From a virus, in IMG/VR virus record IMGVR_UViG_3300025137_000016: a stretch of 64,000 nucleotides of DNA; one strand, given 5' to 3'. Every line of letters starts with the position of its first letter. Within the stretch, counting starts at the first letter, position 1. This document shows positions 19,128 to 55,489 of the stretch, piece after piece. A model generated the notes under the pieces. The model ran no database searches, had not been told where the DNA came from, and saw only the letters and a list, made by a program, of their open reading frames with translations. A program made the position numbers and the translations under genes.

Positions 19128-20096
19128 ATGAGTAATGATAAAAATGAGCCAGTGGATATCCCAGAAACTGATGAAGATTGGGACAAAATCATAGATGAGC
19201 AAGACGCCATCGAAAAACACAAAATAGCACAAGCAGAACTAGACGCAGAGATGGGTGGTAAAACATTTACCAAACCCACAGTTCCGTCACCTGCATTAAG
19301 CTCTGATCCTGAAGCTCCTCTTCCTGAGGGTGTTCTTAAAAGAGTCATGGGTATGGCTATTCCTACAAGAGAAAAACAACTTGAGGATTATGAAAAGTAT
19401 AAAGAAGCTACATCCAAAACTACTGATCAAAGTAAAGTTGCATATGCAATTGAACAGATCGGAGAAAACAATTTAGATGGTGCTCAAAAATGGCTTAATG
19501 AAAACAAACAGCAACTAGACGAATCTAAAAGATTAACTATTACTGAAGGACAAGCTGTTCAGGTTCACTATGTAAAATTCTTATCTGAAGAAGAGTTTGA
19601 AAGTAAAATTATTGAAGGACTTGCTGAGATTAAACAAATTGAAGTAAAAGATATAATGGATGCTGGTGGTATGGACGCACACTTAGTAAGGGATTTAGAT
19701 ATCGATTCATTAGATGCTATTGAACTTATTATGGATGCTGAAGATATGCTTGGTGCTCAGATTGAAAACACTGAAATTATGTGGGTCAAAACATTAAAAG
19801 ATATCTTCGAAGTTATTAAGTATAAGATCGAAAATGACAATATGCCTTTCCCTATCCCTGACTTTGATGAAGAAGATATTATATTCAGACCAACCACTAC
19901 TAATGTAGATGGTGTAGAGGTACATGGGGGCAACTCTGCTTATAAAGCATTCATGGCTGGGTCTGATCAACAGAGAGCTGTAGAAGGCGATATTGATGCA
20001 TGGCTTGAAGAAGAAGACGCAAGAGAACAAAAAATGCGTGAACTTCTTGAAGAAGATGATGATGATTTATCTGTCGGACACGACAAAAAGGAATAA
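19128..20096 (+). CDS. Acidic protein containing an acyl carrier protein domain
   Basis: LVRDLDIDSLDAIELIMDAED..KTLKDI is a canonical ACP helix II with the DSL serine. Confidence 0.8.
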   Translation: MSNDKNEPVDIPETDEDWDKIIDEQDAIEKHKIAQAELDAEMGGKTFTKPTVPSPALSSDPEAPLPEGVLKRVMGMAIPTREKQLEDYEKYKEATSKTTDQSKVAYAIEQIGENNLDGAQKWLNENKQQLDESKRLTITEGQAVQVHYVKFLSEEEFESKIIEGLAEIKQIEVKDIMDAGGMDAHLVRDLDIDSLDAIELIMDAEDMLGAQIENTEIMWVKTLKDIFEVIKYKIENDNMPFPIPDFDEEDIIFRPTTTNVDGVEVHGGNSAYKAFMAGSDQQRAVEGDIDAWLEEEDAREQKMRELLEEDDDDLSVGHDKKE

Positions 20097-20099
20097 TAT

Positions 20100-20231
20100 A
20101 TGGACTATCTATCACTATACGAGACAGAAAGATCTAAAGTTATTGAATTAGAAGGGCGAATTCGAGAACTTGAATATAAAATAGAACTAAATAATAGTAA
20201 ATTAAACAATGAAGGAGACGATAATGATTAA
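20100..20231 (+). CDS. Small coiled-coil protein (43 aa, not in track)
   Basis: SD AAGGA; MDYLSLYETERSKVIELEGRIRELE. Confidence 0.45.
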   Translation: MDYLSLYETERSKVIELEGRIRELEYKIELNNSKLNNEGDDND

Positions 20232-20448
20232 TGAGAATGAGAAAGTGGCTGTAGAGAATGAAACTCCAGAAGCACCTGAAACAGATGCACCTGTAGAAAC
20301 TCAACCTGAAGCACCTGCGGAAGCACCTGCTGAAGAGCCAAAGGCTGAAGAGCCAAAGGCTGAAGAGCCAAAGGCTGAAGAGCCAGCAAAACCAGAGATG
20401 AGTAATTTACAGAAAGCAGCAGTTGCTAAATTAAACGAACTTATCTAA
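20224..20448 (+). CDS. Small Pro/Glu/Ala-rich late protein
   Basis: CTAAATA at 20187, SD AAGGAG. Confidence 0.6.
   Translation: MINENEKVAVENETPEAPETDAPVETQPEAPAEAPAEEPKAEEPKAEEPKAEEPAKPEMSNLQKAAVAKLNELI
20329..20385 (+). repeat. 15-bp coding tandem repeat, about 3.8 copies (AEEPK)
   Basis: GCTGAAGAGCCAAAG x3 plus a partial copy. Confidence 0.9.
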
Positions 20449-20463
20449 TTAAAGGGGATACAA

Positions 20464-21876: not shown

Positions 21877-21877
21877 T

Positions 21878-22996: not shown

Positions 22997-23019
22997 TAAA
23001 TAATAACATAACCTAGAAC

Positions 23020-23048: not shown

Positions 23049-23075
23049 TTCTGCAAAATTAAATAGGAGTAAATT

Positions 23076-26242: not shown

Positions 26243-27256
26243 ATGATTTATGTGGACGCAAAATATGCTGCGATGCTCTCACCGAGAGTACGCAACTTCA
26301 AACAGCAGAAGGACTATCTATGGAACCTTTCCTGTCCTCTCTGTGGTGATTCCAAAAAAGACCAATCAAAAGCTCGAGGATATATCTATCGTAAAGAATC
26401 CTCGCTTTTTTATAAGTGCCATAACTGTCAAGCTGGTACGAATCTTGGCAACTTAATCAAACAACTAGACTCACGAATGTATAGTGAGTACTCTCTCGAA
26501 AAATTTGGGAGTACTAATAATACACACGTGCAAGATAAACCAGATTTAGATATATTCAAGACGGAAGCAATACAATTTCCTACTAAATTACAGCATGCGA
26601 ATTTTGTATCTACTCTCCCTGATGAACACCCAATAAAAAAGTTCTTACTAAGACGACACATAAATCACGATCTACATAAGCACTTTTATTGGGTGCCGAG
26701 ATTTAAACAATGGGTAAATGATAATGTGGTATATAAGTTTCATAAGATAGTATCTGATGAGCCAAGATTAGTTATACCCTTCTTTGATGAGGATAAAGAA
26801 TTAATTGCTCTACAAGGTAGATCTTTCGGAAATGAAGAGCCTAAGTATTATACACTGAAAGTTAAAGAAGAAAACCATAAAGTGTATGGTCTTGATCGTT
26901 TAAATAAAGATCAACATGCTTATGTAGTTGAGGGTCCAATAGATTCTCTATTTCTTCAAAACTGTATAGCAGTTGCAGGTGCTTCTTTTGATATACCTCA
27001 AGTTAGAGAATTAAAAGATAACTGTACAATTGTTTTTGATAATGAACCACGCAATCGTGAACTCGTAAAACAAATAGAATCTATAATTAAAAAAGGTTAT
27101 AGAGTTTGTTTATGGAGTGATAGTGTAAAAGAAAAAGATATTAATGATATGATTATGGCTGGCAAAACACCTCTTACAATACATGCTCTCATGGAGGGGA
27201 GTAGTGTACAAGGTGCAGAAGCTGAAGCCAAATTTAACTTATGGAGAAAGTGCTAA
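26243..27256 (+). CDS. gp61: DNA primase
   Basis: CPLCGDS..CHNC zinc finger; EGPIDS, FDNEPRN and KDINDM TOPRIM motifs. Confidence 0.95.
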   Translation: MIYVDAKYAAMLSPRVRNFKQQKDYLWNLSCPLCGDSKKDQSKARGYIYRKESSLFYKCHNCQAGTNLGNLIKQLDSRMYSEYSLEKFGSTNNTHVQDKPDLDIFKTEAIQFPTKLQHANFVSTLPDEHPIKKFLLRRHINHDLHKHFYWVPRFKQWVNDNVVYKFHKIVSDEPRLVIPFFDEDKELIALQGRSFGNEEPKYYTLKVKEENHKVYGLDRLNKDQHAYVVEGPIDSLFLQNCIAVAGASFDIPQVRELKDNCTIVFDNEPRNRELVKQIESIIKKGYRVCLWSDSVKEKDINDMIMAGKTPLTIHALMEGSSVQGAEAEAKFNLWRKC

Positions 27257-27753
27257 TGACTATACCATTTGACAGAGCTGACTTATTAAAAGATTATGTT
27301 CATGAGATGGATATTACTGAAGATATGGTTCGAACATTTTGTAAAATTGTACAAGATGATAACCCCTTACATTTCGGAGACGAAGAGGGTAATGTAATGC
27401 CAGGAGCATTAATGGTTTCACTATTATTTTCAAACCCAGTAAATGGTTTCTTTATTCGTAATGTACAAATTAAATTTCTAGCACCAATTCACTTTCCTAC
27501 AAAGGTTAAGATATATCGTAAGGTATGGAAAGCTACAGATAGAAAAGCTGGTGAACTCGGAGAAGGTATTTTTGCCATTCGTGATTTAACTGATGGCATT
27601 ATTAAGTGCAAAGGTACAGGACAAGTATTCAGACCAACTAAAAGATTAATGGAAACATTTGAAACAGGTGTTGATAGAAACTTTTTTAAGTCGTCAGATC
27701 CTAATTTTAAAAGACAACATTGGACAAACCCAACAGGCAAGGAGATAAAATGA
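27256..27753 (+). CDS. MaoC-like hotdog-fold (de)hydratase
   Basis: F..IVQDDNPLH..VMPGAL hydratase-2 motif; IKFLAPI. Confidence 0.75.
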   Translation: MTIPFDRADLLKDYVHEMDITEDMVRTFCKIVQDDNPLHFGDEEGNVMPGALMVSLLFSNPVNGFFIRNVQIKFLAPIHFPTKVKIYRKVWKATDRKAGELGEGIFAIRDLTDGIIKCKGTGQVFRPTKRLMETFETGVDRNFFKSSDPNFKRQHWTNPTGKEIK

Positions 27754-28214: not shown

Positions 28215-28551
28215 AGAACTTTGGGATGAACAAGAAGAAGTCCTAGAAAAACCACAACAGCAGACTGTATCTAACTTCGTAAGAGGTGAATGGGTCGATC
28301 GTATATATGGTGGTGGTGGTAATAAAATGAGATTACTCCAAGGGCAGTTCGGTAAAGAGTTCGCTGGTACTATCACTGAAAAGAAGTTTCGTAGATATAG
28401 AAAAGATCTACAGGGCATCGCTACTGAAACATATTATCAAAAATACCATCATACTTCAGATGGAAGATGGTTCGACAATGGTGGTATGCCATGTGAAAAA
28501 CCTCACCATGAACCAAAACAGGCACACCTAGAGGAAGAAGAAAGCGAATGA
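28189..28551 (+). CDS. Hypothetical protein
   Basis: SD GGAG; ATG at 28189. Confidence 0.6.
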   Translation: MAKKKALIEELWDEQEEVLEKPQQQTVSNFVRGEWVDRIYGGGGNKMRLLQGQFGKEFAGTITEKKFRRYRKDLQGIATETYYQKYHHTSDGRWFDNGGMPCEKPHHEPKQAHLEEEESE

Positions 28552-29108
28552 ATGAGCCGAATATATTACTAAAGAAAATAGATGGAAAAAATTTATATAT
28601 TTTTGATGATATCTTTACTTTTGAACAACGAGAAAAGCTATATAGTTATTGCTTAAATCAAAAGTATTCTCTCTCTGGATCTGATGTCCAAAGACTAGAA
28701 ACTAAAGGCGATTACAACTTATATTGCAACCTTTCCCCAATAGACGTGGATAACATGGGGATTGAATGTATTAAAGCATACAGCCACGTCAAACACCACT
28801 TAGATAAATACACAATTACTCAATCAAGAATTAATTTGAGTACCATCCAGGATCGGAATCGTTTTCATTGCGATACTGGTGCCGAGCATAATATGACCAT
28901 GCTTTATTATCCCAATATGGAATGGGAAAAGTCTTGGGGTGGACAGACACTTTTTTCAAACCTAAATGGAGATGACCTAGAATGGGTCTCTCACTATATT
29001 CCTGGAAGGATAATATTATTCGATGGCACACTCCCCCACTCAATCAACCCCCCAACAATCCACAGCCCAACGCACAGATTTTCAATCGTCATTCAATATG
29101 GAAAATAA
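28548..29108 (+). CDS. Fe(II)/2OG oxygenase (prolyl-hydroxylase-like)
   Basis: FHCD, YYPN.EW..WGGQT, PGRIILFDG..PH and R.S motifs. Confidence 0.85.
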   Translation: MNEPNILLKKIDGKNLYIFDDIFTFEQREKLYSYCLNQKYSLSGSDVQRLETKGDYNLYCNLSPIDVDNMGIECIKAYSHVKHHLDKYTITQSRINLSTIQDRNRFHCDTGAEHNMTMLYYPNMEWEKSWGGQTLFSNLNGDDLEWVSHYIPGRIILFDGTLPHSINPPTIHSPTHRFSIVIQYGK

Positions 29109-30917: not shown

Positions 30918-31859
30918 ATGATTACACTACCAGAACATTTAAGTTATAGTAGAGAAGAAGTAGCGAAACTCAGAACACAAAAGATATTTCGTTATGGTGA
31001 TGTTGCTAGACTCGATAAAGAACTAGACTTTCTTTGTACATTTAAAAATGATTTAATCAAAGATTTCTTAAAAGAATATAAAGATATCGAAGACTGTTTA
31101 CAAAAAGGAACTACTTCTGCAATGGGTGCAATATATGCCCAACTTAAAAAAAGTAAAGAGGGTATTCCTGACAAAGCATTAATGAATAAAGCAACTGCTC
31201 AAGGCAATCCTGATGTTGAATTTAACATAGGTGATGATTCTTTTTTAAAAGGTCAAACTGTAGATGGTAAATTAACTCATGATGCTTGGCGAGTATTAGT
31301 TATGAAATATCATAATCCTAATATAGTTGGTAGAGGTCAAGAGAAAGGTGTTCAAGAAAGAATGCTTAAACTAAGACAAGCACAAGATGGTTATAGAGCA
31401 TCAGCATTTCCTACTATGATGAAGATTGCTGATCATTATAAAGAACTGTGTCCTGTATTAGAATACAGTATTCTACCAGCTCAAAGTATTATTGAAAGAC
31501 ATATAGGAATAGAAAATAAAAAGGGAGAGAATATAAGAATACATATTCCTTTAATTATTCCTGAAGGAGATTTATATTTAGAAGCTACTGGCGAGGAAGT
31601 TGATTGGCAACATCCATGGGGATTTAATAATCAACATATGCATAGTGCTCATAATAATTCAAATGAACATAGACTAATAATGTTAATTGATTTAAAAAGA
31701 ACTTATGTTGGTATTCCACCAGCAACGCATTTTAAAGATATGAGCATGGATCAGATTGGTGATGTACACTTTAAATACGGAAGGGATAATGAAAGAAGCC
31801 AACCTCAAATATCTTCTTCATTGTCAAATAAATTTAGGAAACCAGAGGACTACCTATGA
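30918..31859 (+). CDS. Aspartyl/asparaginyl beta-hydroxylase-like (LpxO-like) oxygenase
   Basis: YSIL..I.RHIG, IRIHIPLIIP and HSAHN..RLIMLID. Confidence 0.75.
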   Translation: MITLPEHLSYSREEVAKLRTQKIFRYGDVARLDKELDFLCTFKNDLIKDFLKEYKDIEDCLQKGTTSAMGAIYAQLKKSKEGIPDKALMNKATAQGNPDVEFNIGDDSFLKGQTVDGKLTHDAWRVLVMKYHNPNIVGRGQEKGVQERMLKLRQAQDGYRASAFPTMMKIADHYKELCPVLEYSILPAQSIIERHIGIENKKGENIRIHIPLIIPEGDLYLEATGEEVDWQHPWGFNNQHMHSAHNNSNEHRLIMLIDLKRTYVGIPPATHFKDMSMDQIGDVHFKYGRDNERSQPQISSSLSNKFRKPEDYL

Positions 31860-39160: not shown

Positions 39161-39171
39161 AGGAGTGCCCA

Positions 39172-40690: not shown

Positions 40691-40775
40691 CATTGTCGGA
40701 GATAATCTAGGCAATTTTTTTCATGATATAATACACGATCCATCAATCATGTTAATTCTATCGTTTAGTTTCTAA

Positions 40776-41891
40776 ATGAAATTCGCTTTACCATTAACTG
40801 TATTGTTCATGCTTGTACTATGCTCTCAAGAAGTGAAAGCAAGTATAGGAGAAGTGACACTACATGAAGGCAACGGAAGTATTGAAAGAAAAACTAATGG
40901 CGAATCTGTCACTACTGAAAAAGAAGTAGATGTATTCAGTTATGATACAGTTAAAACTGGAAATGGTAAAACTGCTATTGAGTTTATTGACGATACCAGA
41001 GTTGATGTCACAAGTCATAGTAAATTAGTCATTGATGAATTTGTTTACGATCCTAATACTAAGACAGGAAAGTTATCATTAAAAGCTAGTCTCGGAACAA
41101 TAAGATATGCTTCTGGTCAGATAGCAAAAAACTCAGCAACAGATGTAAATATTACTACTCCAACAGCAACCATTGCTGTAAGGGGAACTGACTTCACTAT
41201 GACTGTAGATGAGGTTGGGTCTTCTACTATTATATTATTACCAAGTTGTGATACCACAGGTGCTTGTTATGTAGGGGAGATAGCTGTAGAATCTGATGCT
41301 GGATTTGTAATATTAAACCAAGCATTCCAGGCAACAGTAGTTGATACAATATCAAGTCAACCTATGAAGCCAGTGATACTAAATTTAGATGAGGAGATGA
41401 TTGGTAATTTATTAATAGTATCTAAACCAAGAGAGATAGCAGAAGAACAATCTAGGGAAGATTCGTATAACCAAGTTGCTAGTGCATTAGATATAGATTT
41501 TTTACAGTTTGATGATTTAGAAATAGATTACTTAGAAGATGAAGAAGATACTTGGTCAACTGGATTAGATATAGATTTTTTAGAACAAAATTTTCTAGTA
41601 GATATTTTGGCTCAGATAAATAAAGAACTTGCTAAAGCTATGCGAAGCGAGTTTGATAAGAAAAAATCAACTAGTAATGTTCAATTAGGGAAAGACCCTG
41701 TCACTGGTATTATAATTTTAGATGAAGATCCTCAATGGGTTTATTCTAGAGAAGGTGCAGGAAACTTTTTTGAATTAAGATTAGATAAGGAATATGGCTA
41801 TGTCATTTCATTTACACAAAACGATTTTCAAATTATGGATTACGAACTAGGAGGAGCAGAAAATGTTATCGACATTCTTCAAAATCAGTAG
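40776..41891 (+). CDS. FecR-domain exported protein
   Basis: Signal peptide; D.VKTG, F.DDT, and ITTPTATIAVRGTDF. Confidence 0.85.
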   Translation: MKFALPLTVLFMLVLCSQEVKASIGEVTLHEGNGSIERKTNGESVTTEKEVDVFSYDTVKTGNGKTAIEFIDDTRVDVTSHSKLVIDEFVYDPNTKTGKLSLKASLGTIRYASGQIAKNSATDVNITTPTATIAVRGTDFTMTVDEVGSSTIILLPSCDTTGACYVGEIAVESDAGFVILNQAFQATVVDTISSQPMKPVILNLDEEMIGNLLIVSKPREIAEEQSREDSYNQVASALDIDFLQFDDLEIDYLEDEEDTWSTGLDIDFLEQNFLVDILAQINKELAKAMRSEFDKKKSTSNVQLGKDPVTGIIILDEDPQWVYSREGAGNFFELRLDKEYGYVISFTQNDFQIMDYELGGAENVIDILQNQ

Positions 41892-43236
41892 CATACTTGT
41901 ATTAAGTTTTTTACTCTCATCTAAAGCATGGGGTGGTAGTCTTAATTACGAAGTCTGGGGTATCTCAACTTATGCTCCTATGTTAGAATCACCTTGTTAT
42001 AATAACTATGCGTATCTTTCTACATGTAATAATACAAACTGGGCAGGTGTTGGTGTGTCTCAAGGAACTGGTACTCTTAGTAGTTTAAATTATAACTGGA
42101 ATAGTGGTCAAATAAATTTTGGAGGGAACACCAATTTTGGCTACGACCAAAAAATGGCAGTCATCACAGGTTATTGGCAACATCCAGGAACAGCTGGTCA
42201 ATCATCAACAGTATATTTTGCTGGTCGTAATGATGATGGTCTTATAGTAAATATTAATAATACCAAAGTAATATCTGACTGGGCACAACAAGGTCCAACA
42301 TATTGGAACTCCAGTGGTTCATTTACAGGTGTGGGTGGTCAATGGTATCCAATAATGATTAACTGGTATGAATGGGGTGGTTCTGCTAATATGGATATAC
42401 ATTATAGTTTATCTAATTTAAGTTTAAACTCTACAAGTGGTTGGTTAGATATGAACAACAATCATTTTAGTACATCAGCTCCAGTGACAGCAACAGTTGC
42501 AACAAGTGGTCAATCAAGTTTGGTCACCACAGGTAAAGGAGCAACAGGTGAGGGAGTAAATCTAAATGTACAAGGGGATAATAATGATATCAATATACAA
42601 CAAGCTGGGAACAACAATTTTATCGTAGGTACTAACTGGTCAAGTGCTGCTCAACTTACTGGAGATAATAATACTATAAACTTCAGTCAAGGAAACCACA
42701 ATACAAGTGGCAGTAGTGGTAGTAATGGTATCGGCTTTGATATTACAGGGGATAGTAATACTGTGAGTATATCCCAAGGAGATGCTTCTGCTGATACTGG
42801 TGATCATAGAGTATGGATGGATATTGATGGGGATAGTAATGTGTTATCTCTATTACAAAAAAACAATGGCGATACTAACTCTGAGCATTACATGCATATT
42901 GATATTGATTCTAGTAGTAATAATGTATTGGCTTATCAACATAACGATGGAGATAAAACATTATTCTTAGATATAAATAATAACAGTAATGATGTGGATA
43001 TATTTCAGTATGGTACTGGCTCACATTTTCTTGATGTATTATTGGATTCAGGAAGTAGTGCTCATGATATAGATATCACGCAGGACGGAGCAGGAGATCA
43101 TGGAGCAAGAATAGACTTGTCTGGATATTCATATGATTTTGATTTATCACAAGATAGTGGTAGTTCTAAAAGCTATGTCGTAGAAGGTATATGTGCAACC
43201 TCTAGTGGTTGTAGTTTATCTACCACACAAAACTAA
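41863..43236 (+). CDS. Secreted PA14-domain plus curlin-repeat protein
   Basis: NDDG and WYEWGG (PA14); C-terminal Q.G..N repeats. Confidence 0.7.
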   Translation: MLSTFFKISSILVLSFLLSSKAWGGSLNYEVWGISTYAPMLESPCYNNYAYLSTCNNTNWAGVGVSQGTGTLSSLNYNWNSGQINFGGNTNFGYDQKMAVITGYWQHPGTAGQSSTVYFAGRNDDGLIVNINNTKVISDWAQQGPTYWNSSGSFTGVGGQWYPIMINWYEWGGSANMDIHYSLSNLSLNSTSGWLDMNNNHFSTSAPVTATVATSGQSSLVTTGKGATGEGVNLNVQGDNNDINIQQAGNNNFIVGTNWSSAAQLTGDNNTINFSQGNHNTSGSSGSNGIGFDITGDSNTVSISQGDASADTGDHRVWMDIDGDSNVLSLLQKNNGDTNSEHYMHIDIDSSSNNVLAYQHNDGDKTLFLDINNNSNDVDIFQYGTGSHFLDVLLDSGSSAHDIDITQDGAGDHGARIDLSGYSYDFDLSQDSGSSKSYVVEGICATSSGCSLSTTQN

Positions 43237-43248
43237 CTAAATATAATA

Positions 43249-43677
43249 TTGGCATATAGTAAAAAAGTCGTAGACCGATTCGAAAGTGTTCTACGCAATC
43301 CAAAAAAACATTCGGTTGGTAGATTCAATCCGAAGGATGCTGATGTTGCGACAGGTATGGTAGGAGCTCCTGCTTGTGGTGATGTAATGAAATTACAATT
43401 GAAACTTGATAGAGCCAACGATCCTGATAAAGCTAAGATCGTAGATGTTAAGTTTAAAACATATGGGTGTGGTTCTGCTATCGCATCTTCTACTATGTTT
43501 GTAGAAATGTTAAAAGGTAAAACTATTGAAGAAGCAAAAAATATAAAAGATAAAGAAATAGCTGAAGCATTAGAATTACCTCCAATAAAATTACACTGTT
43601 CAGTATTAGCAGAAGAAAGTATTAAAAAAGCGATAGAAGATTGGTATGATAAAAAATATTCTGACCCACTGGACTAG
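43249..43677 (+). CDS. iscU: Fe-S cluster scaffold (TTG start)
   Basis: GAPACGDVM, FKTYGCGSAIAS and LPPIKLHCS; CTAAATA at 43237. Confidence 0.93.
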   Translation: MAYSKKVVDRFESVLRNPKKHSVGRFNPKDADVATGMVGAPACGDVMKLQLKLDRANDPDKAKIVDVKFKTYGCGSAIASSTMFVEMLKGKTIEEAKNIKDKEIAEALELPPIKLHCSVLAEESIKKAIEDWYDKKYSDPLD

Positions 43678-43944
43678 TGCCTTTAAAGAAGGGATAGCAT
43701 AATGTACTTTATTATTACAGCATGGCTCACACTATATTCTGGTCCAGCAATACATCACGAGTTGAATACAATACAGTTTGAAGACACCTGGCAGTGTCAT
43801 GAATACATTGCAGAAAACAAGATGGCATTGCTCTTACCTCATATTGAAACTTATGGCGATGATCTAAAAGGGTTTGAATTCTACTGTGAAAACAGGTGGA
43901 ATGATTAATGTCTAAAATTTTTACGCATTGGACTAGTGCCTTTA
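43670..43944 (+). repeat. 16-bp direct repeat TGGACTAGTGCCTTTA flanking an inserted gene
   Basis: Copies at 43670-43685 and 43929-43944. Confidence 0.85.
43702..43908 (+). CDS. Small two-Cys hypothetical protein
   Basis: Hydrophobic N-terminus; F....C..Y...C pattern. Confidence 0.6.
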   Translation: MYFIITAWLTLYSGPAIHHELNTIQFEDTWQCHEYIAENKMALLLPHIETYGDDLKGFEFYCENRWND

Positions 43945-45746
43945 TAACTGTTGCCATCCTGGCAATTATAGGATTCGCAAATCCTGACTTCAAAGAAATA
44001 ATTAAACTAAAGTCTTTCGACTTTTTACTTGCGTCTGAAGAACAAACCTTTTCAGATGATATAGTAATAGTTGAAATAGATGAACAGACCATAGATAAAC
44101 TTGGTCAATATCCTTTTGCTAGAACTCACTATGCAGATCTAATAGACAAGCTAAGAATTGCTGGGGCAGGTGTAATAGTATTCCCAATATTATTCTCGGA
44201 AGAAGATAGAGAAGGTGGTGATGATTTATTTAAGAATTATCTAACTGCAGGAACTGTTATTGCTCAGCTAGGAACTAATGATATTAATAAGAATGGTGTA
44301 CCAAGAGGTGTAGCTAAGATTGGCGATCCCTTACCTTATCTATTTGAATGGGGTGGTATGCTTGGACCAATACCTGAACTTGGACAATCAGCAAATGGTG
44401 TAGGTGTTGTTAATACTGCACCAGAGTTAGATGGAGTTGTTCGTAGAGTACCACTATTGATGAGGATAGGTGAAGATGTATATCCTAGTATTGCCATAGA
44501 GGTTATTAGAGTTGCAGTAGGTGACCCATCGTATCAAGTTAAAGCAGGTGTTGCTGGTATTCAAGCTATGAGGGTTCCAGGATTCGCTACTATTGAAACT
44601 GATGCTAATGCTAGAATATGGTTGAGACATAACAAAGAATATCATACTATCTCAATGATAGATATCGAAGAAGAATTAAATGAACTATTAATATTTGGTA
44701 AGACTGTTATCGTATCACCAACTGCTGCTGGGATTTCAAATATAATTGCTACACCAAGAGGTGAACAGTATTCACATTATATAACTGCTTCAACTTTAGA
44801 TACAGTATTATCTGGTGAGCAAATAACTCGAGTAGATTATCTACCATTGCTTGAATTACTTGCTATGGTAGTTTGGGCAGTAATAACTATATTGGCTTGT
44901 AGATTTTTACCATACGCATGGTTGGCAGTTTACTTAGCGACTATTATAATTGCTGCAGGAGTAAAAGCATATCTAGCATTTACTTGGTATGGTTGGCTGA
45001 TAGATGTATCTTGGTTTATTATCGCAATGTTCTTAGTAGGATTTCATTCTACCTTTACTAGATTTATATTAGAGTTTAATCTAAAACAACAAATAAGAAA
45101 ACAGTTTGAAAGATACTTAGATCCTAGACAAGTTGCTATCTTACAAAAAGATCCTAGCAAATTAAAACTTGGTGGTGAGAAAAGAGAGATGAGTTTCTTG
45201 TTTATGGATATAGTTGGCTTCACACCTATATCAGAATTCTTTAAAAACAATGACGATCCCGAAGGATTAGTAGAACTGATTAATGATTATCTAAATCGTA
45301 TGAGTAAGATCGTTATGAATAATGGTGGCACCATAGATAAATATATGGGCGATTGTATTATGGCTTTCTGGAATGCTCCATTAGATTGTGAGGATCACGC
45401 AGAGATGGCAGTCAAGACTAGTATAGAGTGTGCCATAGAAACTGAAGAATTGAAAAAGATGTACAAAGAAAAAGGTTTGCCTGAGATTAATATTGGTTCA
45501 GGAGTAAATACTGGAACTTGTATTGTAGGCAATATGGGTAGTGAGATGAGATTTGATTATTCAGTTATTGGTGATGCAGTAAATCTTGCTGCTAGATTAG
45601 AAGCCCAGACTAGAAACTATGATAACTGTACCACATTATATTCACAGTACACCAAAGATGCCCTAAATAATATCAAGTCAAAAGAACTTGACAAGATAAA
45701 AGTAAAAGGAAAAGAAGAACTCATAACCATATACGAGCCATGTTAG
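43908..45746 (+). CDS. CHASE2-domain class III adenylate cyclase
   Basis: IVIVEIDE..LGQYPF.R and DGVVRRVP (CHASE2), three TMs, FMDIVGFT, DKYMGD, IGDAVNLAARLE. Confidence 0.92.
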   Translation: MSKIFTHWTSAFITVAILAIIGFANPDFKEIIKLKSFDFLLASEEQTFSDDIVIVEIDEQTIDKLGQYPFARTHYADLIDKLRIAGAGVIVFPILFSEEDREGGDDLFKNYLTAGTVIAQLGTNDINKNGVPRGVAKIGDPLPYLFEWGGMLGPIPELGQSANGVGVVNTAPELDGVVRRVPLLMRIGEDVYPSIAIEVIRVAVGDPSYQVKAGVAGIQAMRVPGFATIETDANARIWLRHNKEYHTISMIDIEEELNELLIFGKTVIVSPTAAGISNIIATPRGEQYSHYITASTLDTVLSGEQITRVDYLPLLELLAMVVWAVITILACRFLPYAWLAVYLATIIIAAGVKAYLAFTWYGWLIDVSWFIIAMFLVGFHSTFTRFILEFNLKQQIRKQFERYLDPRQVAILQKDPSKLKLGGEKREMSFLFMDIVGFTPISEFFKNNDDPEGLVELINDYLNRMSKIVMNNGGTIDKYMGDCIMAFWNAPLDCEDHAEMAVKTSIECAIETEELKKMYKEKGLPEINIGSGVNTGTCIVGNMGSEMRFDYSVIGDAVNLAARLEAQTRNYDNCTTLYSQYTKDALNNIKSKELDKIKVKGKEELITIYEPC

Positions 45747-46024
45747 AAACAATTTTTTATATAGTGCTAGTAGCATATACAGTCCCAGGAGTTCAACTAT
45801 CTTCTGTATGGACTACTCCATTTGCAAATGAAGTTGAGTGCCAATACTATTTAGATAACGAAGTACCAAAACACGAACTACCATTCCCAACTAATGAAGA
45901 AGGTAAACTGATTGTCGTTTATGAAGACGTGGAATATGAAGTAGAATTTTGGGCTCATTCATGTGAGGAGCATTATTATGACGCAGAAAACAATGTATTC
46001 AGAGTTCTCCCAAGATCTATCTAA
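45740..46024 (+). CDS. Small two-Cys hypothetical protein
   Basis: Same layout as 43702-43908. Confidence 0.55.
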   Translation: MLETIFYIVLVAYTVPGVQLSSVWTTPFANEVECQYYLDNEVPKHELPFPTNEEGKLIVVYEDVEYEVEFWAHSCEEHYYDAENNVFRVLPRSI

Positions 46025-46724
46025 TTACTTAATCCCATTAAACATTCCCAAAATAGAAAGACCTAATCTCTGGTCTACTAATAAGAAAACAATTACAGTT
46101 GTCAATCTTACTAAAGATGGAGAACTAACCACCGATCTTCAACCTGAAGATACTAATATGCTAGACCAAGAGATGCATTTCAATGTTGGTCATTATGCAA
46201 ATGACCATGAACATGGTGGTCAGTGGAGACAGAACTCTTTTCCCTGGGAACTTCGCCGAGAAGTAATTCCTAACATCGTACATAGATACCTTAATTGGAT
46301 TCCTGGAGGTTGGTATTGTATTGTTCTAACAACTGCACCCAATTCTCAAATGGCTTTACATTCTCATTCTCGTCAGCATGGCGACTCATGGGCAATAAAC
46401 ATGACTTGGGGAGAGGGAGAACATTATACAGATTTCTATTCCCACCCAACATGGGATTTTAATTTCCAAGAATCTGTTGCTGTGAGGGATCCAGATAAAT
46501 TTAAACATAGAGATGATATCTATGCCATCCTAACTGAGAAAGAACAAGCAGAATGTACTAAAGTATTCACCCATCAAAATGATGGAACCTGTCTTATTAA
46601 TCTCTCTACCATACATGGAGTTCGGAATATGAGCGATAAACCTCGCACAACTCTGCAGTTTGCACCATACATCCCTCTGAAGAGGGAAATAGCTCTTAAA
46701 CACCTAAAAAACAGGGTAAAATAA
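45978..46724 (+). CDS. Cupin / Fe(II)-oxygenase-like protein
   Basis: LHSH, WAIN and LINLSTIHGVRN..PR motifs. Confidence 0.6.
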   Translation: MTQKTMYSEFSQDLSNYLIPLNIPKIERPNLWSTNKKTITVVNLTKDGELTTDLQPEDTNMLDQEMHFNVGHYANDHEHGGQWRQNSFPWELRREVIPNIVHRYLNWIPGGWYCIVLTTAPNSQMALHSHSRQHGDSWAINMTWGEGEHYTDFYSHPTWDFNFQESVAVRDPDKFKHRDDIYAILTEKEQAECTKVFTHQNDGTCLINLSTIHGVRNMSDKPRTTLQFAPYIPLKREIALKHLKNRVK

Positions 46725-49106: not shown

Positions 49107-49369
49107 CACTACCATTATCAGAAAGAGTCACGACTCTACATGATATTGATAATGATAAGGACTATCATGCTGAAGTTCGTGTATGTAAAGAAGCAAAATT
49201 AATTGTTTTTTACAGAGCCGATCTAACTGCTGATATTAAAGAAGTCCAGTTTGATGTTTATGATGAAGACACTCAAATATGGTCAAACGAATTTTACACT
49301 TGCAAGTATCCTAACATAGATGCTTTAAATGCAGGTGATAAGACTGTACGGATTAATAACCATAGATGA
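49103..49369 (+). CDS. Hypothetical protein
   Basis: ATGA-coupled on both sides. Confidence 0.55.
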   Translation: MTLPLSERVTTLHDIDNDKDYHAEVRVCKEAKLIVFYRADLTADIKEVQFDVYDEDTQIWSNEFYTCKYPNIDALNAGDKTVRINNHR

Positions 49370-50127
49370 AAATAGCTGTTGTTATGGGAGTGGCGAATAG
49401 TCGCTCGATTGCGTGGGGTATCGCAAATAAGTTAATAGACGAAGGATACACTTGCGTCTTTACTTATCCGAACACGTCCATTCAAAATAAGATATCTAGA
49501 TTATCTCCATTAGCCCACACATATAAATGTGATGTGACAGATGCTATGCAGGTGAGAAATTGTTTTATGGCAATTAAAGCTAAATATAAAACAATTGATT
49601 ATGTTGTACATGCAATGAGCATGACTGATTTTACAGAATTAGATGGAAAGCTATATGATATATCTAAAGCAAACTTTTCAGAATCTTTAGCAGTAGGATG
49701 TTATTCATTAATTGAGATTGTAAAACACAGTTTACCAATGATGAATGACAATGGTGCATACTTGACACTAAGTTATGATGGAGCTCGTAGAGTTTACGAT
49801 AACTATAATGTGATGGGTATAGTCAAAGCAGCATTAGAATCTAGTGTAAGATACTTAGCACGAGATGTAGCTGATAGAGGAATAAGAGTAAACTGTATAT
49901 CGGCAGGAGTAATTAAAACCTCCAGTGCTATGGCTGTAAAAGGTAGCAAGGGCATGCTGAAGTGGGCAGAGGGAACTAATATGTTAAAAAGAAACATAAC
50001 CCTTGACGACATCGCAGGAACTGCATACTATTTTTTATCTGACTTATCGTCAGGTGTGACTGGTGAAACACAATATGTAGATTGTGGATATAATTTAATG
50101 GGAGCTCCAAGTATAAATGACTTGTAA
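49366..50127 (+). CDS. fabI: Enoyl-ACP reductase
   Basis: GVANSRSIAWGIA, YNVMGIVKAALES (catalytic Y/K), RVNCISAG and SGVTGE..YVD.G. Confidence 0.92.
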   Translation: MKIAVVMGVANSRSIAWGIANKLIDEGYTCVFTYPNTSIQNKISRLSPLAHTYKCDVTDAMQVRNCFMAIKAKYKTIDYVVHAMSMTDFTELDGKLYDISKANFSESLAVGCYSLIEIVKHSLPMMNDNGAYLTLSYDGARRVYDNYNVMGIVKAALESSVRYLARDVADRGIRVNCISAGVIKTSSAMAVKGSKGMLKWAEGTNMLKRNITLDDIAGTAYYFLSDLSSGVTGETQYVDCGYNLMGAPSINDL

Positions 50128-50560
50128 TGTAGTGAATAGAAAGTGGGCAACACTTAGTGACCAAACAATTAAAATGCAACTTAATGGATTCGTAATGAAT
50201 ACCTCCATTGATAAGATAGATGAACTATTTGATGAAGGCATTATTCGTTATGTTGTGAACCATGTACTATATCAATTAGATGTAGAACGACAACTATATT
50301 TTGAAGAAGATGATAAAAGACCACCTGCTTCTAAAAGCAATACTGCAACGATTGCAGAAAAAAAGGTGTATTGTGAAGTCTTACTGAAAGATGCTTCCTG
50401 GACTGACTACTGTCAAAAAGGTGTTAGAGGTTATGCCTGGGATTTTCATGAACTTGCGAAGAAGGACATGGAACAAATTGAAAAACATAAATACGAGGGC
50501 GACCCATCAAAAGGGAACCTCGAAATATTGGAGGAAAGAGAAAATGAGAGCACTAATTAA
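50117..50560 (+). CDS. Hypothetical protein
   Basis: ORF with no recognised motif. Confidence 0.55.
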   Translation: MTCNVVNRKWATLSDQTIKMQLNGFVMNTSIDKIDELFDEGIIRYVVNHVLYQLDVERQLYFEEDDKRPPASKSNTATIAEKKVYCEVLLKDASWTDYCQKGVRGYAWDFHELAKKDMEQIEKHKYEGDPSKGNLEILEERENESTN

Positions 50561-50759: not shown

Positions 50760-50762
50760 AAT

Positions 50763-51116
50763 ATGATTATAGGTCATGGAGTGGATATGGTATTAGAGTC
50801 TCGATTTGAGAGACGCAGGGATAAATGGTCAACAACTATTTTATCACCAAAAGAATTAGAAATATATAATGGACTGTTAGATAGACAGAAATGTAATTAT
50901 CTAGCAAAGGTGTGGGTGTTGAAAGAGTCTTTCGTAAAAGCTCGTCAGCATCCTATCGTTGGTATGAAGGAAGCTAAAATGTTTTCATACATCTCGCCAA
51001 ATTTGGTTCCGAATAAGGAGATGAGTGAAATGCTAAAGGGAGTAAATATACATTGTTCAATATCGGATTTCAAAGGTTGCGTGCTTGGTTCAGTAATTTT
51101 AGAAACAAACACTTAA
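50763..51116 (+). CDS. acpS: Holo-ACP synthase (phosphopantetheinyl transferase)
   Basis: IIGHGVDMV, LAKVWVLKESFVKA and HCSIS. Confidence 0.85.
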   Translation: MIIGHGVDMVLESRFERRRDKWSTTILSPKELEIYNGLLDRQKCNYLAKVWVLKESFVKARQHPIVGMKEAKMFSYISPNLVPNKEMSEMLKGVNIHCSISDFKGCVLGSVILETNT

Positions 51117-51979
51117 TACCTTACACATTAAAATTTCGCATCAGGTACTGGTGGTTCGTCCAGTTGTGCCTACTTGCGATGTTAGTGCTTGGTCGTTGGG
51201 ATCTAATACTTTACGCACTCGGATGGTGGTTTGCTGGAGCAATGGCTATTACCATATATGCTCATAGAACTTTATCACATAACAGTTTAGAAATAAAATG
51301 GAAATGGTTAGAACATGTATTTTGTTCTTTATGTATCCTAAGTAATGTTGGAAGTCCACTTGCTTGGGCAATAGTACATAGAATGCATCATGTTTATATG
51401 GACGAAGAAAAAGATCCACATAGTCCACATCAAATAGGATTCTTAAATTCCTTAACTCATAGATGGGATGTACCATTTGATGAGATACCATTAAGATTTA
51501 CTAGAGGATTATTAAGACAAGAAACTCCAAGGTGGTATCATGAAAATGGTATGTTTCCTTTTATGTTTCTTACTGTTTTTATATGGGCAGTCACTGTAGC
51601 ATATGGGACTACCATATATGGCTTCGGAGAACTCGGATATTATATGATGAATATATTTACATACGATGGTCCAGCTGTATATCTACAAACATTCTCACTA
51701 GAGTTTGCTTGGGCAGGATTTGCAGGAGTAGCACTAGGACAATGGTCTATGGGTATAACTAACGCATGGCAACATAGTGACAAACGAGGTAAAGGATACA
51801 TTCGTGATATCCCATGGTATTTAAGTTTTATTAATTGGGGAGAGGGTAGTCATAAAGCCCACCATAACAACCCCAAAAATTATAGTTTTGGAAAAGGGTT
51901 AAATGATCCTTCACAATATATTATTTTATTCCTGGCAAAAATCGGTGCTATAAAGGTTATAAATAATAGGAGTATATAA
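51116..51979 (+). CDS. Membrane fatty-acid (delta-9-type) desaturase; start uncertain
   Basis: His boxes HRTLSH, HRMHH and HKAHH; DPHSP; TM helices. Confidence 0.9.
   Translation: MPYTLKFRIRYWWFVQLCLLAMLVLGRWDLILYALGWWFAGAMAITIYAHRTLSHNSLEIKWKWLEHVFCSLCILSNVGSPLAWAIVHRMHHVYMDEEKDPHSPHQIGFLNSLTHRWDVPFDEIPLRFTRGLLRQETPRWYHENGMFPFMFLTVFIWAVTVAYGTTIYGFGELGYYMMNIFTYDGPAVYLQTFSLEFAWAGFAGVALGQWSMGITNAWQHSDKRGKGYIRDIPWYLSFINWGEGSHKAHHNNPKNYSFGKGLNDPSQYIILFLAKIGAIKVINNRSI
51958..51965 (+). promoter_or_regulatory. T4-type late promoter TATAAATA
   Basis: Exact T4 late consensus; another at 58967; CTAAATA variants precede many genes. Confidence 0.65.
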
Positions 51980-52108: not shown

Positions 52109-52146
52109 TGATAGTTCTGGCTTTAACAAAAACTATCACTTTTTTT
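52109..52146 (+). terminator. Rho-independent terminator
   Basis: TGATAGTT...AACTATCA stem followed by T7. Confidence 0.6.
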
Positions 52147-52178
52147 ATATGCGTTGTAATGGAAAGGAAATTTTTACA

Positions 52179-52475
52179 ATGGAAAGCATGATGATTGATA
52201 CTGCACTGCCTGAATATATTTTAACCCTAACACTTGCTGGAATGTTCTTTTTCGTAGGTTGGGTTATGCCAAGAGGAACTTCCCTCAAAAGACTTCAAGG
52301 AAAAATTAATAAGAGATTCTATAACTGGGTCGGAGCAATCATGATTAAGTTTCATAATTTCTTTGCTGACGAAGAATTCTATCTTGAACATATCTGGCAA
52401 GATACTAAAGAATATGTTCGTAAGAAACACGGATACGAGAAAAAGAAACCCAAAGCACCGACTAAGAAAAAATAA
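52179..52475 (+). CDS. Small membrane protein
   Basis: One TM helix and a basic tail. Confidence 0.55.
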   Translation: MESMMIDTALPEYILTLTLAGMFFFVGWVMPRGTSLKRLQGKINKRFYNWVGAIMIKFHNFFADEEFYLEHIWQDTKEYVRKKHGYEKKKPKAPTKKK

Positions 52476-53254
52476 TGTTTAGACCACCATATCATGTAGA
52501 GTTGAAGGATGTACCCTTCCCACTTTCTGATGTTGAACTTGCAAAACAATTGGCAAGGTATGATCAAGAAAATGGTGATTGGGCAAAGCGAGAAAATATA
52601 CCTGATGTTTGGTACACTGATAAGTCATCAACCTCTTTTGGTGCTTATGGATTTGTAGCTAATCTTTGGATTAAGAATTATGATTTTGCTCCAGAGTTTT
52701 TAAAATGGTTAGATAAAAACATGATGGCTCCAGCACTCGTTGGTACTATCTTTGTATCCCCTCCAGGATATTCCCTAAGACCCCACATCGATTATGCCGA
52801 ATATTCCGCAGAATATTTTTGGCGAATAAACTTCCCTGTAAATTTACAAGACAACTCTGACAAGTCAATGGCTTTCTGGGATCCTAGAGATTGTAATATG
52901 GAAAGACGAAACTATATCAATCATCCAAAGATGCCACATACTGATGCAATGAGTTTAATAGAATTCGATGATGAGACTCGACCTAAAGTTAAAAAACATT
53001 TTGATACACAACTAGGCAAGGCATCTATTATATGTGTTGCTGGACCTGACTGTGCTCATAGTATGATATATGATGGGGAGAAAGAAACCTATACAATATC
53101 AATTGACTTCAGAGATAAAAGAACTGGAGCTAGAATACATGACTGGAACGCAATAGAAAAAAGAATGGGACACCATTTTGTAAAAGAAGATAGACCATCG
53201 CCTATCTCTGCCGAAGTAAAAGACGATGGAGAATTTACTTGGAGTAGATCATGA
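52475..53254 (+). CDS. Fe(II)/2OG-type oxygenase-like protein
   Basis: IF..PPG..RPHID, RINFP and HSM..SIDF. Confidence 0.6.
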   Translation: MFRPPYHVELKDVPFPLSDVELAKQLARYDQENGDWAKRENIPDVWYTDKSSTSFGAYGFVANLWIKNYDFAPEFLKWLDKNMMAPALVGTIFVSPPGYSLRPHIDYAEYSAEYFWRINFPVNLQDNSDKSMAFWDPRDCNMERRNYINHPKMPHTDAMSLIEFDDETRPKVKKHFDTQLGKASIICVAGPDCAHSMIYDGEKETYTISIDFRDKRTGARIHDWNAIEKRMGHHFVKEDRPSPISAEVKDDGEFTWSRS

Positions 53255-54282
53255 AGCATGAACCATATTACATGTCATTAAAAGACACACTTGAAAGACC
53301 TATTACTAATGAGGATTTGCACAGCATATTAGAGCCACTGAGAGCCAACCCAGCACGAGGTAATATATGTGTAAGGAATAGTTGGTTTCGTATCGAAATG
53401 ATGAAGCAATGGCGTGATATGATGCTAATGCCTTATGGTTGCAGTATCTTTAGAGCTCACCCTAATTATCGAATGAGTCCACACTGTGACTCCCCAGCAA
53501 GACCTAATTGGGGAAGAGTGACTTGGGCATTCGAAGAAACTAGTCCTGGAATATATGAGCCATGGCGACCTAATGAAGAAGAATCTTCTATCATGACTTA
53601 CTGGGATGCATCCGAAGCAGAGGAAATGGGATCTGATATGTGTAATGTATCAGGGGATCCCGAAAAAGATTTAACATATATCATACCAAGAGAAAGAACA
53701 TTGCCAGGATACAAAGGAAACTTGAAAGAAGAATTAAGTGTTCAGTTGTCATATCCTGGATTAATTAATGTTGGTCAGCCACATTCAGTTTGGCATAATT
53801 CTGATAAACCTCGTATCGCTATCTCTATAGAATTTATGAATAGAAAAGGTGTATTTGAAGGCTGGGATAAATTAGCAAAAACTTTAGAACGATTTGGTTA
53901 TGCTGATATGGAACAAGATGATAGAACTGTTAAGTATGGTTCGAGATTACATGATGGTTTATTTTCGTGCCTATATAATAAAGAGACTAATGAAAATGTA
54001 CCAGCGACTGTATTTGATGCGGAACAATTAAAAGATCAATTAGAAAAACATCTAGGAACTAATGCTAAAGGTATGTCATACCAAGAAGCAGAAGATGTTT
54101 ATATGTCAAATAGAATAGTTGAAAAAGGTGCACCGAAAGGTAAGATGCTTGCTGACCAAGGATTGGACTATGACGAGTTTATAGAAAAACCTGGAAGTCC
54201 ATTTAAATTAGTTTTTGGTAATGTAATGCAAAGTTTAATTAACATTGAAGAAGAATATAAAAAGAAATATCCTGGAGTATAA
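53251..54282 (+). CDS. Fe(II)/2OG-type oxygenase-like protein
   Basis: SPHCD and LINVGQPHSV..PRIAISIEF. Confidence 0.65.
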   Translation: MKHEPYYMSLKDTLERPITNEDLHSILEPLRANPARGNICVRNSWFRIEMMKQWRDMMLMPYGCSIFRAHPNYRMSPHCDSPARPNWGRVTWAFEETSPGIYEPWRPNEEESSIMTYWDASEAEEMGSDMCNVSGDPEKDLTYIIPRERTLPGYKGNLKEELSVQLSYPGLINVGQPHSVWHNSDKPRIAISIEFMNRKGVFEGWDKLAKTLERFGYADMEQDDRTVKYGSRLHDGLFSCLYNKETNENVPATVFDAEQLKDQLEKHLGTNAKGMSYQEAEDVYMSNRIVEKGAPKGKMLADQGLDYDEFIEKPGSPFKLVFGNVMQSLINIEEEYKKKYPGV

Positions 54283-54283
54283 T

Positions 54284-55489
54284 ATGAATGTAAAACCTGT
54301 ACATGTAGTTGGTTATGGAATGTCTGATGCCTTGGGCATTAGTCCTGACGAATGCTATACCAATATGCTTGATGCCAAAGATTACTCAAGAGAGATTCCT
54401 GGGATGGCAAAACAAGTAGAAGAAATTTTCCACTTAACAATTCATCGAGGAGCGATGCATGATGAGAATAGAATCATTATGCCTGAAGGATTTGATAAAA
54501 AGATGTGGAGGTCTATGACCAATGCTCAAAAGATGATGAGTAATACTACTGAACAAGCTATGCAAATGGCAGGTTTAGAACGCAGTCCTAATGTGGCATG
54601 TCTTGCCAGTACTGTTTCAAATGATACTGAAGGCATCGATGTTTACTTTGAATATATTAAGTACATGAAGAGGGGTAATGCTCGTAGAGCAGTTAATAGG
54701 ATCCCTGATATGGGTTGTATGCATATTACTTCTTACTATGGCTTCAAAGGTTTGTCAACTGCTACCTTTGCATCCTGTGCGACTGGTATGGTTAATATTG
54801 ATTATGCTATGCGTCTTACTGATGAATATGATTATGTTATCTGTACTGCTGGTGATTGTGCTAACTTCCCTATGGGAATTAAATACTTCGCTTGTCTAGG
54901 TGCATTAGCAAACTGGTCATTACCATTTGACGATAGACGACAAGGTTTCTTAATGGGTGATGGTGGTGCTTGTATGATATTACAATCAGAAGAAAGTATG
55001 AAAAAATTTGGTTCTACTTCTTATGCTAAATTACATAAAGCAGGTATGGCATCTGATGCTGTAGATATGGTAAACCCAGAAGGAGGAGGAACTCGTAATT
55101 CTATGAAGGACGCACTAGCTAACGCAGGTGTAGATAATGTAGATTATGTTTGTACTCATGGTACAAGTACTGTTGCTGGAGATCCTATTGAGTATGAAGC
55201 TGTATCTGAAGTTATGCCAGGAACAAAAATGTGGGCACCGAAAAGTAAAATCGGTCACACACTTGCTGCTTCTGGAATACTTGAAGGATGCTATGCTATT
55301 GAAAGTATGAGAAAAGGTACAGTGCCCCATATTCAAAATTTAAAAGAATCTAAAATAGATATACATGGAACTTTACTTAGAGAAAATGTTAAGTATAGTG
55401 ATGACCAAAAGAAACGAACTATGTTAAATAATAGTTTCGGATTTGGTGGTAAGTGTATGTCACAAGTAATAGAGGTAAACAATGGCTGA
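54284..55489 (+). CDS. fabF: Beta-ketoacyl-ACP synthase (FabF/FabB type)
   Basis: Cys-His-His triad in ASCATG, HGTST and KSKIGHTL; PFD..R.GF..G; NSFGFGG. Confidence 0.9.
   Translation: MNVKPVHVVGYGMSDALGISPDECYTNMLDAKDYSREIPGMAKQVEEIFHLTIHRGAMHDENRIIMPEGFDKKMWRSMTNAQKMMSNTTEQAMQMAGLERSPNVACLASTVSNDTEGIDVYFEYIKYMKRGNARRAVNRIPDMGCMHITSYYGFKGLSTATFASCATGMVNIDYAMRLTDEYDYVICTAGDCANFPMGIKYFACLGALANWSLPFDDRRQGFLMGDGGACMILQSEESMKKFGSTSYAKLHKAGMASDAVDMVNPEGGGTRNSMKDALANAGVDNVDYVCTHGTSTVAGDPIEYEAVSEVMPGTKMWAPKSKIGHTLAASGILEGCYAIESMRKGTVPHIQNLKESKIDIHGTLLRENVKYSDDQKKRTMLNNSFGFGGKCMSQVIEVNNG

Follow-up and report, generated by a model that had tools for sequence, protein, structure and literature searches.

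Can a phage carry a fatty-acid elongation pathway of its own? The question is raised by IMG/VR virus record IMGVR_UViG_3300025137_000016, from which we analyzed a stretch of 64,000 nucleotides (the window). Between its positions 19,128 and 55,489 lie genes related to type II fatty-acid synthesis (FAS-II): a protein with an acyl carrier protein (ACP) domain, a hot-dog-fold protein, an enoyl-ACP reductase (FabI), a 4'-phosphopantetheinyl transferase (PPTase) of the AcpS type, a membrane desaturase and a beta-ketoacyl-ACP synthase (KS), with two predicted 2-oxoglutarate (2OG)/Fe(II) oxygenases between the last two. A sequence-only reading of this DNA had proposed that these genes supply most of an elongation cycle and form a dedicated, orthogonal acyl pathway. 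The set is genuine and fuller than is usual in phages, yet it is incomplete, was assembled stepwise and is not one inherited pathway. The best explanation, which we hold tentatively, is a partial, host-dependent FAS-II that has a private carrier, remodels acyl chains and was built step by step in one marine, pelagimyophage-like lineage.

The synthase, FabI, AcpS and desaturase all have intact catalytic residues, and the sequence-only identifications of these four proteins stand (Table 1). Both KS domains of the synthase score above their cut-offs (PF00109, 1.4e-22; PF02801, 2e-22), its catalytic triad of Cys178, His305 and His338 is invariant in 26 family members, as is Lys333, and its alignment to E. 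coli FabF structures (1e-34) includes the triad. Against the FabF equivalog model TIGR03150 it stays below the cut-off (184.8 bits vs 493.75), and it belongs to a divergent phage family and is not a housekeeping FabF. In FabI, Tyr147 and Lys154 are invariant in the alignment; NCBIfam FabI models match with E-values down to 1e-75, yet the equivalog cut-off is missed (best 253.9 bits vs 446). Alphaproteobacterial FabIs are its best solved relatives (217 bits) and account for 80 of its best 80 genome matches, at 42-47% identity. The FabI tree places the phage clade on a long branch outside every sampled alphaproteobacterial or other cellular FabI, with Pelagibacteraceae nearest by path, and because of this long branch the donor cannot be named. 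AcpS aligns with the S. pneumoniae enzyme (1fte), matching its GHGxD and KE..KA motifs, and scores below the cut-off of TIGR00516 (33.8 vs 59.8).

The desaturase, which the sequence-only reading had placed at 51116, carries three His boxes (HRTLSH71, HRMHH109 and HKAHH267) that align with those of stearoyl-CoA desaturase (SCD) 1, and its best solved relatives are human and mouse SCD1. Membrane desaturases of the SCD type use acyl-CoA or acyl-lipid substrates, not ACP-bound chains. We considered action of the desaturase on the phage carrier and rejected it because the enzyme is of this type.

The carrier domain of the 322-amino-acid (aa) protein was also correctly picked out. Its PF00550 match spans aa 165-226 and exceeds the cut-off (22.4 bits vs 20.8), while the AcpP model TIGR00517 gives it 23-27 bits against a cut-off of 70.45 and against 98-113 bits for alphaproteobacterial AcpPs. 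Despite scores so far under the AcpP cut-offs, ACP models, AcpM among them, span the domain at full length, and with alphaproteobacterial AcpPs it shares 22-28% identity, the serine of the DSL motif and a full four-helix ACP alignment. The protein is acidic along its whole length (80 Asp+Glu vs 35 Lys+Arg). A search of 1.8 billion representatives returned one full-length relative (76% identity); the remaining matches cover only aa ~150-245 and are ordinary ACPs of 75-150 aa. The carrier domain is complete yet divergent, and is unlike a free housekeeping AcpP of ~80 aa. Since it reaches at most 27 bits on a model that gives true AcpPs 98-113, a private PPTase makes sense.

Table 1. Genes of the fatty-acid set and their neighbors in the window, in order of position.
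Feature	Coordinates	Strand	Basis of assignment
322-aa protein with central acyl-carrier domain (aa ~150-245), Ser194 in DIDSLD, orphan N- and C-terminal extensions	19128..20096	+	PF00550
Hot-dog-fold protein with hydratase-2-like motif D39-x-N-P-L-H44; tentative MaoC/PhaJ/Had-type dehydratase	27256..27753	+	poor model + motif
Third Oxy-family member of the window, 253 aa, outside the cluster	45963..46724	+	iterated family hidden Markov model
FabI-type enoyl-ACP reductase, 253 aa, Tyr147-x6-Lys154	49366..50127	+	adh_short_C2 (PF13561) 4e-71
Conserved 147-aa protein (p147), function unassigned	50117..50560	+	no Pfam/NCBIfam/PHROG match
AcpS-type 4'-phosphopantetheinyl transferase, 117 aa	50763..51116	+	PF01648 1e-9, 38.7 bits vs cut-off 25
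Membrane SCD/DesC-type fatty-acid desaturase, 308 aa from TTG (start uncertain)	51053..51979	+	PF00487 7e-8, 32.9 bits vs cut-off 29.7
Small conserved protein (p108), 108 aa, hydrophobic stretch, function unassigned	52149..52475	+	no Pfam/NCBIfam/PHROG match
Oxy1, 2OG/Fe(II) oxygenase-fold protein, 259 aa, H104-x-D106...H195	52475..53254	+	family alignment + AlphaFold2 (AF2) model
Oxy2, Oxy1 paralog, 343 aa	53251..54282	+	BLASTP vs Oxy1 5e-8, HxD and H aligned
Elongating beta-ketoacyl-ACP synthase, divergent phage family, 401 aa from ATG (open reading frame opens at 54245)	54284..55489	+	PF00109 + PF02801

How the set came together can be read from its distribution. Across the 2.9 million viral contigs of IMG/VR, FabI occurs on 14 contigs of one clade, and elsewhere only as matches of at most 45% identity. 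The order RNase H, DUF6433, p88, FabI, p147, AcpS, desaturase, p108, Oxy1, Oxy2, synthase, MazG, NT5C, HD is preserved with its content in nine related marine IMG/VR contigs at protein identities of 55-100% (p108 within the clade, 63-97%). Three related records, G001-G003 (70-131 kb, 43-73% complete), each encode one carrier protein, one AcpS, one FabI and one hot-dog protein. The carrier, AcpS and FabI are absent from three other synthase-carrying genomes, G006 (92% complete), G007 and G008 (both complete), which as a set measure 145, 235 and 333 kb; AcpS has no copy in any of G006-G010, and neither of the two searched for the hot-dog protein, G007 and G008, has it. The synthase family counts 2,020 database proteins at E ≤1e-10 and 247 matching stretches in IMG/VR. 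Its best 120 members are 44-89% identical and ~390 aa long, and many sit on contigs of 100-330 kb with phage genes; matches to GenBank proteins labelled as phage were discarded as bacterial-type sequences in mislabelled records. Synthase relatives at or below 58% identity have neither FabI nor AcpS nearby. A freshwater relative (L015) keeps the order RNase H-DUF6433-...-desaturase-...-synthase, and there and in L016 the homologs of p88 and p147 adjoin, with no FabI between them; more distant phages without FabI have a p147 homolog of 35-43% identity at the matching place.

These patterns suggest that the synthase, desaturase and oxygenases are an old, widespread phage core, and that one clade later gained FabI, AcpS, the carrier and the hot-dog protein. 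Co-occurrence across related phages, proposed by the sequence-only reading as a check, is thus partly borne out, in that the set is conserved within the clade but was not inherited as one block. The same reading had named unrelated origins and independent distributions as evidence that would count against it. Assembly was indeed stepwise, but the carrier, AcpS, FabI and hot-dog protein share one pattern and the core recurs together in neighborhood counts. The divergent carrier and its AcpS have this single phyletic pattern in common, from which we argue that they work together, and a divergent carrier seen only alongside its own PPTase is the best argument for a private carrier.

The distribution also supplies a point in favor of a competing view, in which the synthase, FabI and the hot-dog protein add bulk capacity to host FAS-II on host ACP while the desaturase adjusts fluidity, and the 322-aa protein has some other role, for example in the virion or as a scaffold. 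Most synthase-carrying phages, complete genomes included, lack the carrier, AcpS and FabI, and because of this absence the synthase must use host ACP in those phages. The housekeeping, alphaproteobacterial type of FabI fits such a flux booster, as do the position of the carrier gene, 30 kb off and near a head-protein homolog, and the prior listing of FabF, desaturase and acpP as ordinary auxiliary genes of such phages. An idle carrier is, however, hard to square with a private AcpS found only with the divergent carrier domain, or with the retention by that domain of its DSL serine and full four-helix alignment. We consider bulk flux unlikely, though it is the rival to be taken most seriously.

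The case for functional linkage within the core comes from what surrounds the synthase in other phages. Grouping of the synthases at 90% identity gave 35 lineages, and the open reading frames (ORFs) within 6 kb of them were all clustered; the resulting figures are plain counts. An SCD-type desaturase is the commonest neighbor (11/35 lineages), followed by an unannotated family of ~144 aa (9/35) and the Oxy family (7/35, with 24 ORFs). In related phages, arrays of three to seven Oxy paralogs directly upstream end exactly at the synthase start. Another group of lineages has AspH-type paralogs directly 3' of the synthase (Asp_Arg_Hydrox, 3e-22), and one lineage (L032:5666-12801) has a row of genes that starts with a free 85-aa ACP and four P4H-type 2OG oxygenases, continues with the synthase and ends with a soluble acyl-ACP desaturase (PF03405, 4e-52) followed by a PhyH dioxygenase; an adenylylsulfate (APS)-kinase-like gene lies upstream of the row. 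That differing protein families take the same roles beside the same synthase is a sign of functional coupling, and these neighbors look like non-orthologous replacements within one recurring theme. The recurrent synthase-desaturase-oxygenase link fits desaturation and hydroxylation of the chain, in keeping with the unsaturated or hydroxylated lipid that the sequence-only reading had suggested as a product.

The two oxygenases had been called correctly as well. Neither Oxy1 nor Oxy2 has a Pfam match, but they are paralogs, and across an alignment of 40 family members the H-x-D...H triad comprises the only near-invariant residues. The AF2 model of Oxy1 (predicted local distance difference test, pLDDT, 82.7) finds 2OG oxygenases in 50/50 of its best chains, led by proline 3-hydroxylase (Z 9.9, root-mean-square deviation 3.5 over 159 residues), with AspH, FIH, prolyl hydroxylases, CurA halogenase and phytanoyl-CoA hydroxylase among the further matches. 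A sequence profile of the family found no solved relative, and the ESM Atlas returned only unnamed viral clusters and a weak Asp_Arg_Hydrox lead. By the triad and this model, Oxy1 and its paralog Oxy2 are 2OG/Fe(II)-fold proteins.

The window encodes six 2OG oxygenases, TET/JBP included, and their number is one reason to ask whether the genes are linked at all. On such a view they are neighbors only because a hyperplastic region of T4-like phages gathers host-derived genes, and each member of the set would act alone or not at all. The set was assembled in separate steps from genes of differing ages and origins, three of its members are scattered over 36 kb, and RNase H, MazG, NT5C and HD genes in the region have the same tight spacing. 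Mere accumulation is nonetheless at odds with the recurrence of synthase, desaturase and oxygenase together in divergent lineages, with different families in the same roles, with the single phyletic pattern common to four FAS-related genes, and with the near absence of FabI from the rest of the 2.9 million viral contigs. We judge a chance collection of unlinked genes to be improbable.

How would a partial FAS-II with a private carrier operate? Phage AcpS would first convert the phage carrier domain to its holo form, after which host FabD would load malonate and host FabG would carry out the ketoreduction. Chains on the phage carrier, and possibly those on host ACP, would be elongated by the synthase, the probable hot-dog dehydratase and FabI. 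Host acyltransferases would then move the chains into lipids, where the SCD-type desaturase, and perhaps the 2OG oxygenases, would introduce double bonds and hydroxyl groups. As a result, both the supply and the composition of acyl chains in the envelope lipids of the infected cell would change.

Several observations weigh against this reading, beginning with the functions that are missing. We scanned all window ORFs of at least 200 aa for FAS genes and searched G001-G003 with family models. FabD (PF00698) was found in neither, the sole short-chain dehydrogenase/reductase in either is FabI, so that FabG is missing, and FabH (PF08541) and FabZ/A (PF07977) were likewise found in neither. Searches for an acyl-activating (AMP-binding) enzyme and for a PlsC-type acyltransferase came up empty, in the window as in relatives of up to 131 kb, and nothing in the set shows a route for chains onto or off the phage carrier. 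Because the related records are 43-73% complete, these absences are likely but not proven; taken as they stand, the host must supply all six functions. The sequence-only reading had been right that FabG, FabD and FabH are not in the window, and the wider search that it called for, which in G001-G003 covered PlsC-type acyltransferases too, found none. Its description of the set as most of an elongation cycle is not supported, for want of a malonyl transferase, a ketoreductase, a primer synthase and FabZ/A. Nor is a dedicated, orthogonal pathway, given that the missing steps need the host, that the desaturase is a membrane enzyme of the SCD type and that the genes have separate histories.

The dehydration step is a further weak point. 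The hot-dog protein (ORF opening at 27241, with a second ATG at 27256 that suits its homologs) has no family match in Pfam, NCBIfam or PHROG. The Pfam family MaoC_dehydratas has no hit either, whether to the protein (E 0.01) or, with the limit relaxed to E 10, in related records. The call as a dehydratase leans on an AF2 model that is poor (pLDDT 46), although of hot-dog topology. The top Foldseek matches of this model are all hot-dog folds (PhaJ1, HTD2, HadBD, PhaJ and HadAB), thioesterases among them, and a thioesterase identity is possible. An hhalign comparison with 10 alphaproteobacterial MaoC proteins is weak (E 0.01, probability 4%) yet keeps the D39-H44 stretch in register with their near-invariant Asp and His; a sequence search of the PDB was not significant (best HadD/Rv0504c, E 0.84). 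Only seven close homologs exist, and D39-D-N-P-L-H44 is invariant in all seven. The earlier MaoC assignment is thus tentative, with hot-dog topology and the D39-H44 stretch in its favor and no family match; on balance we think that the protein is probably a MaoC-type dehydratase.

Gene position adds to the doubts. A distance of 30 kb separates the carrier gene from the cluster; it sits amid cytidylyltransferase-like genes, two genes from a 'head protein' homolog, and may serve an unrelated purpose. Unrelated nucleotide genes of the region are packed as tightly as the rest, and 2OG oxygenases are numerous in these phages, which makes adjacency weak evidence.

The same carrier gene lends itself to another proposal, in which the carrier-bound chain goes not to bulk lipids but to a phage protein or surface structure, such as a virion component, secreted curli-like proteins or lipid A, or to a small polyketide-like molecule. 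A divergent carrier domain with long orphan extensions and a private PPTase would suit such a role, and so would head-associated genes beside the carrier gene, CsgF/CsgG and other envelope proteins encoded in the window, and hydroxylating and desaturating enzymes linked to the synthase. Set against these, Pfam searches of the window ORFs of at least 200 aa found no acyltransferase, adenylating enzyme, second KS or chain-length factor (CLF) subunit, or cyclase; the one candidate for a thioesterase is the hot-dog protein, and no protein stands out as a target. A special product of this kind seems to us improbable. More doubtful still is a private acyl line, in which AcpS would arm the carrier and the synthase, reductase, dehydratase, desaturase and hydroxylases would build a special chain on it. 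Either that chain or the acylated carrier itself would then go to a phage-made structure instead of bulk membrane lipids, with a virion component or the phage-encoded curli-type secretion products as candidate recipients. A type II polyketide synthase, which the earlier suggestion of a type II polyketide-like product would imply, was rejected, as there is a single KS among window ORFs of at least 200 aa and tblastn gives one match per related locus.

Among described phages, the nearest counterparts are pelagimyophages. The text of Zaragoza-Solas et al. (2020; PMC7029224) assigns fabF and a stearoyl-CoA desaturase to freshwater pelagimyophages, and its Table S5 adds acpP; FabI and AcpS are not named in the text or supplements searched, and an oxygenase array beside the synthase, as in the window, is not discussed there. 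The window has in common with those phages that it is T4-like and aquatic, with curli genes, TET/JBP, PhoH, MazG and ThyX, and that it combines a synthase, an SCD-type desaturase and a carrier protein. It is unlike them in that its set is marine and includes FabI, AcpS, the hot-dog protein and a 322-aa fused carrier. Lipid desaturases of cyanophages have been published (Roitman et al. 2018; PMC5776448), with which the window shares a membrane desaturase as an auxiliary gene of marine T4-like phages, and ACP modules have been reported in jumbophages (PMC13573597). Within the literature searched, the window holds the fullest phage fatty-acid gene set, extending the published pair or trio of genes.

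Cellular systems offer looser parallels. In rhizobia, NodF and NodE, a special ACP and a special ketoacyl synthase, build an unusual acyl chain with the help of FabD, FabG and further FAS-II enzymes of the housekeeping pathway. By analogy, the phage set may follow the same logic in an alphaproteobacterial setting, a private carrier and condensing enzyme borrowing the housekeeping cycle. Unlike the phage set, NodFE comes without a FabI, PPTase, desaturase or oxygenases of its own, and it has a known acceptor, the Nod factor, served by a known acyltransferase. The FAS-II systems of mycobacteria (KasA/B, InhA, HadAB/BC/BD, AcpM) and mitochondria (OXSM, HTD2) are likewise dissociated elongation systems with a FabF-like synthase, and share with the phage a FabI-family reductase (InhA), an extended ACP (AcpM) and, if the phage hot-dog protein is one, a hot-dog dehydratase of the MaoC/hydratase-2 kind. 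Those systems are complete, ketoreductase and malonyl transferase included, and the phage resembles them in function and fold only, a likeness in which we have low confidence.

Phages of SAR11-type bacteria infect some of the ocean's most abundant cells. If the set works, such phages go beyond using one desaturase to tune membrane fluidity; they would take charge of the condensing and final reducing steps, and perhaps of the dehydrating one, bring their own carrier and activator, and so alter lipid composition in a large share of infected marine cells. Possibly more important is the broader finding that a distinct phage synthase family, widespread in aquatic phages, repeatedly stands beside desaturases and 2OG oxygenases of different families. 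This recurrence suggests that phages commonly tailor acyl chains in a way not yet described, and is the part that we consider most worth following. The enzymes are small and intact, which makes the idea testable by expression in E. coli.

The window has a G+C content of ~35%, lacks tRNAs and carries every long ORF on the + strand. Pfam matches include a family B DNA polymerase, a DnaB-type helicase, a RecA/UvsX-like protein and a T4-type RNase H, together with both ribonucleotide reductase subunits, ThyX, PhoH and MazG. The DNA polymerase is 53% identical to cyanomyovirus polymerases and the ribonucleotide reductase large subunit 55-57% identical to those of Pelagibacter podophages; no close relative was found among GenBank phages, where a DNA search gave only three short matches. 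Near the synthase in distant synthase-carrying phages (L014:288-2522 and L015:20983-21179) are genes for Cpn10, ribosomal protein S21 and S-adenosylmethionine (AdoMet) decarboxylase, which are hallmarks of pelagimyophage-like phages. By its sequence the window belongs to a marine T4-like, pelagimyophage-like phage, and its gene content, curli genes included, agrees with metagenomic pelagimyophages (PMC7029224). The host is probably a SAR11-type bacterium.

Other parts of the window carry features of their own. A contiguous block at 5435-11005 encodes a TET/JBP oxygenase, an FkbM-type methyltransferase, an amino acid:DNA transferase (ADDT), a myo-inositol-1-phosphate-synthase-like protein and P-loop nucleotide kinase 3, and looks like a thymidine hypermodification pathway. 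At 13993-18758, the gene for a DUF6267 protein (2e-106) precedes that for a 1152-aa protein, in which the N-terminal 300 aa resemble phage 'cytidyltransferase' families; a single PHROG profile covers both, from which we conclude that other phages have the two as a fusion. A 2OG-FeII_Oxy_3 gene (28548-29108) comes two genes after the hot-dog gene, and together with an Asp/Arg beta-hydroxylase gene (30918-31859, 4e-11) it flanks a ribonucleotide reductase gene. A SegE-type GIY-YIG homing endonuclease (35939-36358, 2e-37) is encoded two genes 3' of the ribonucleotide reductase small-subunit gene, with an unannotated 282-aa ORF in between. The envelope and signalling block at 38681-45746 comprises CsgF, CsgG (1e-56), FecR, a PA14-like protein and a CHASE2-adenylate/guanylate cyclase; curli genes are already published for marine pelagimyophages, and the adjoining cyclase and FecR may be unpublished. 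Promoter and terminator scans of the window stayed at chance level. The T4 late-promoter motif TATAAATA has three exact sites in the window, rarer than chance, and one of them, at 51958-51965, falls in the gap between the desaturase and the p108-Oxy1-Oxy2-synthase run.

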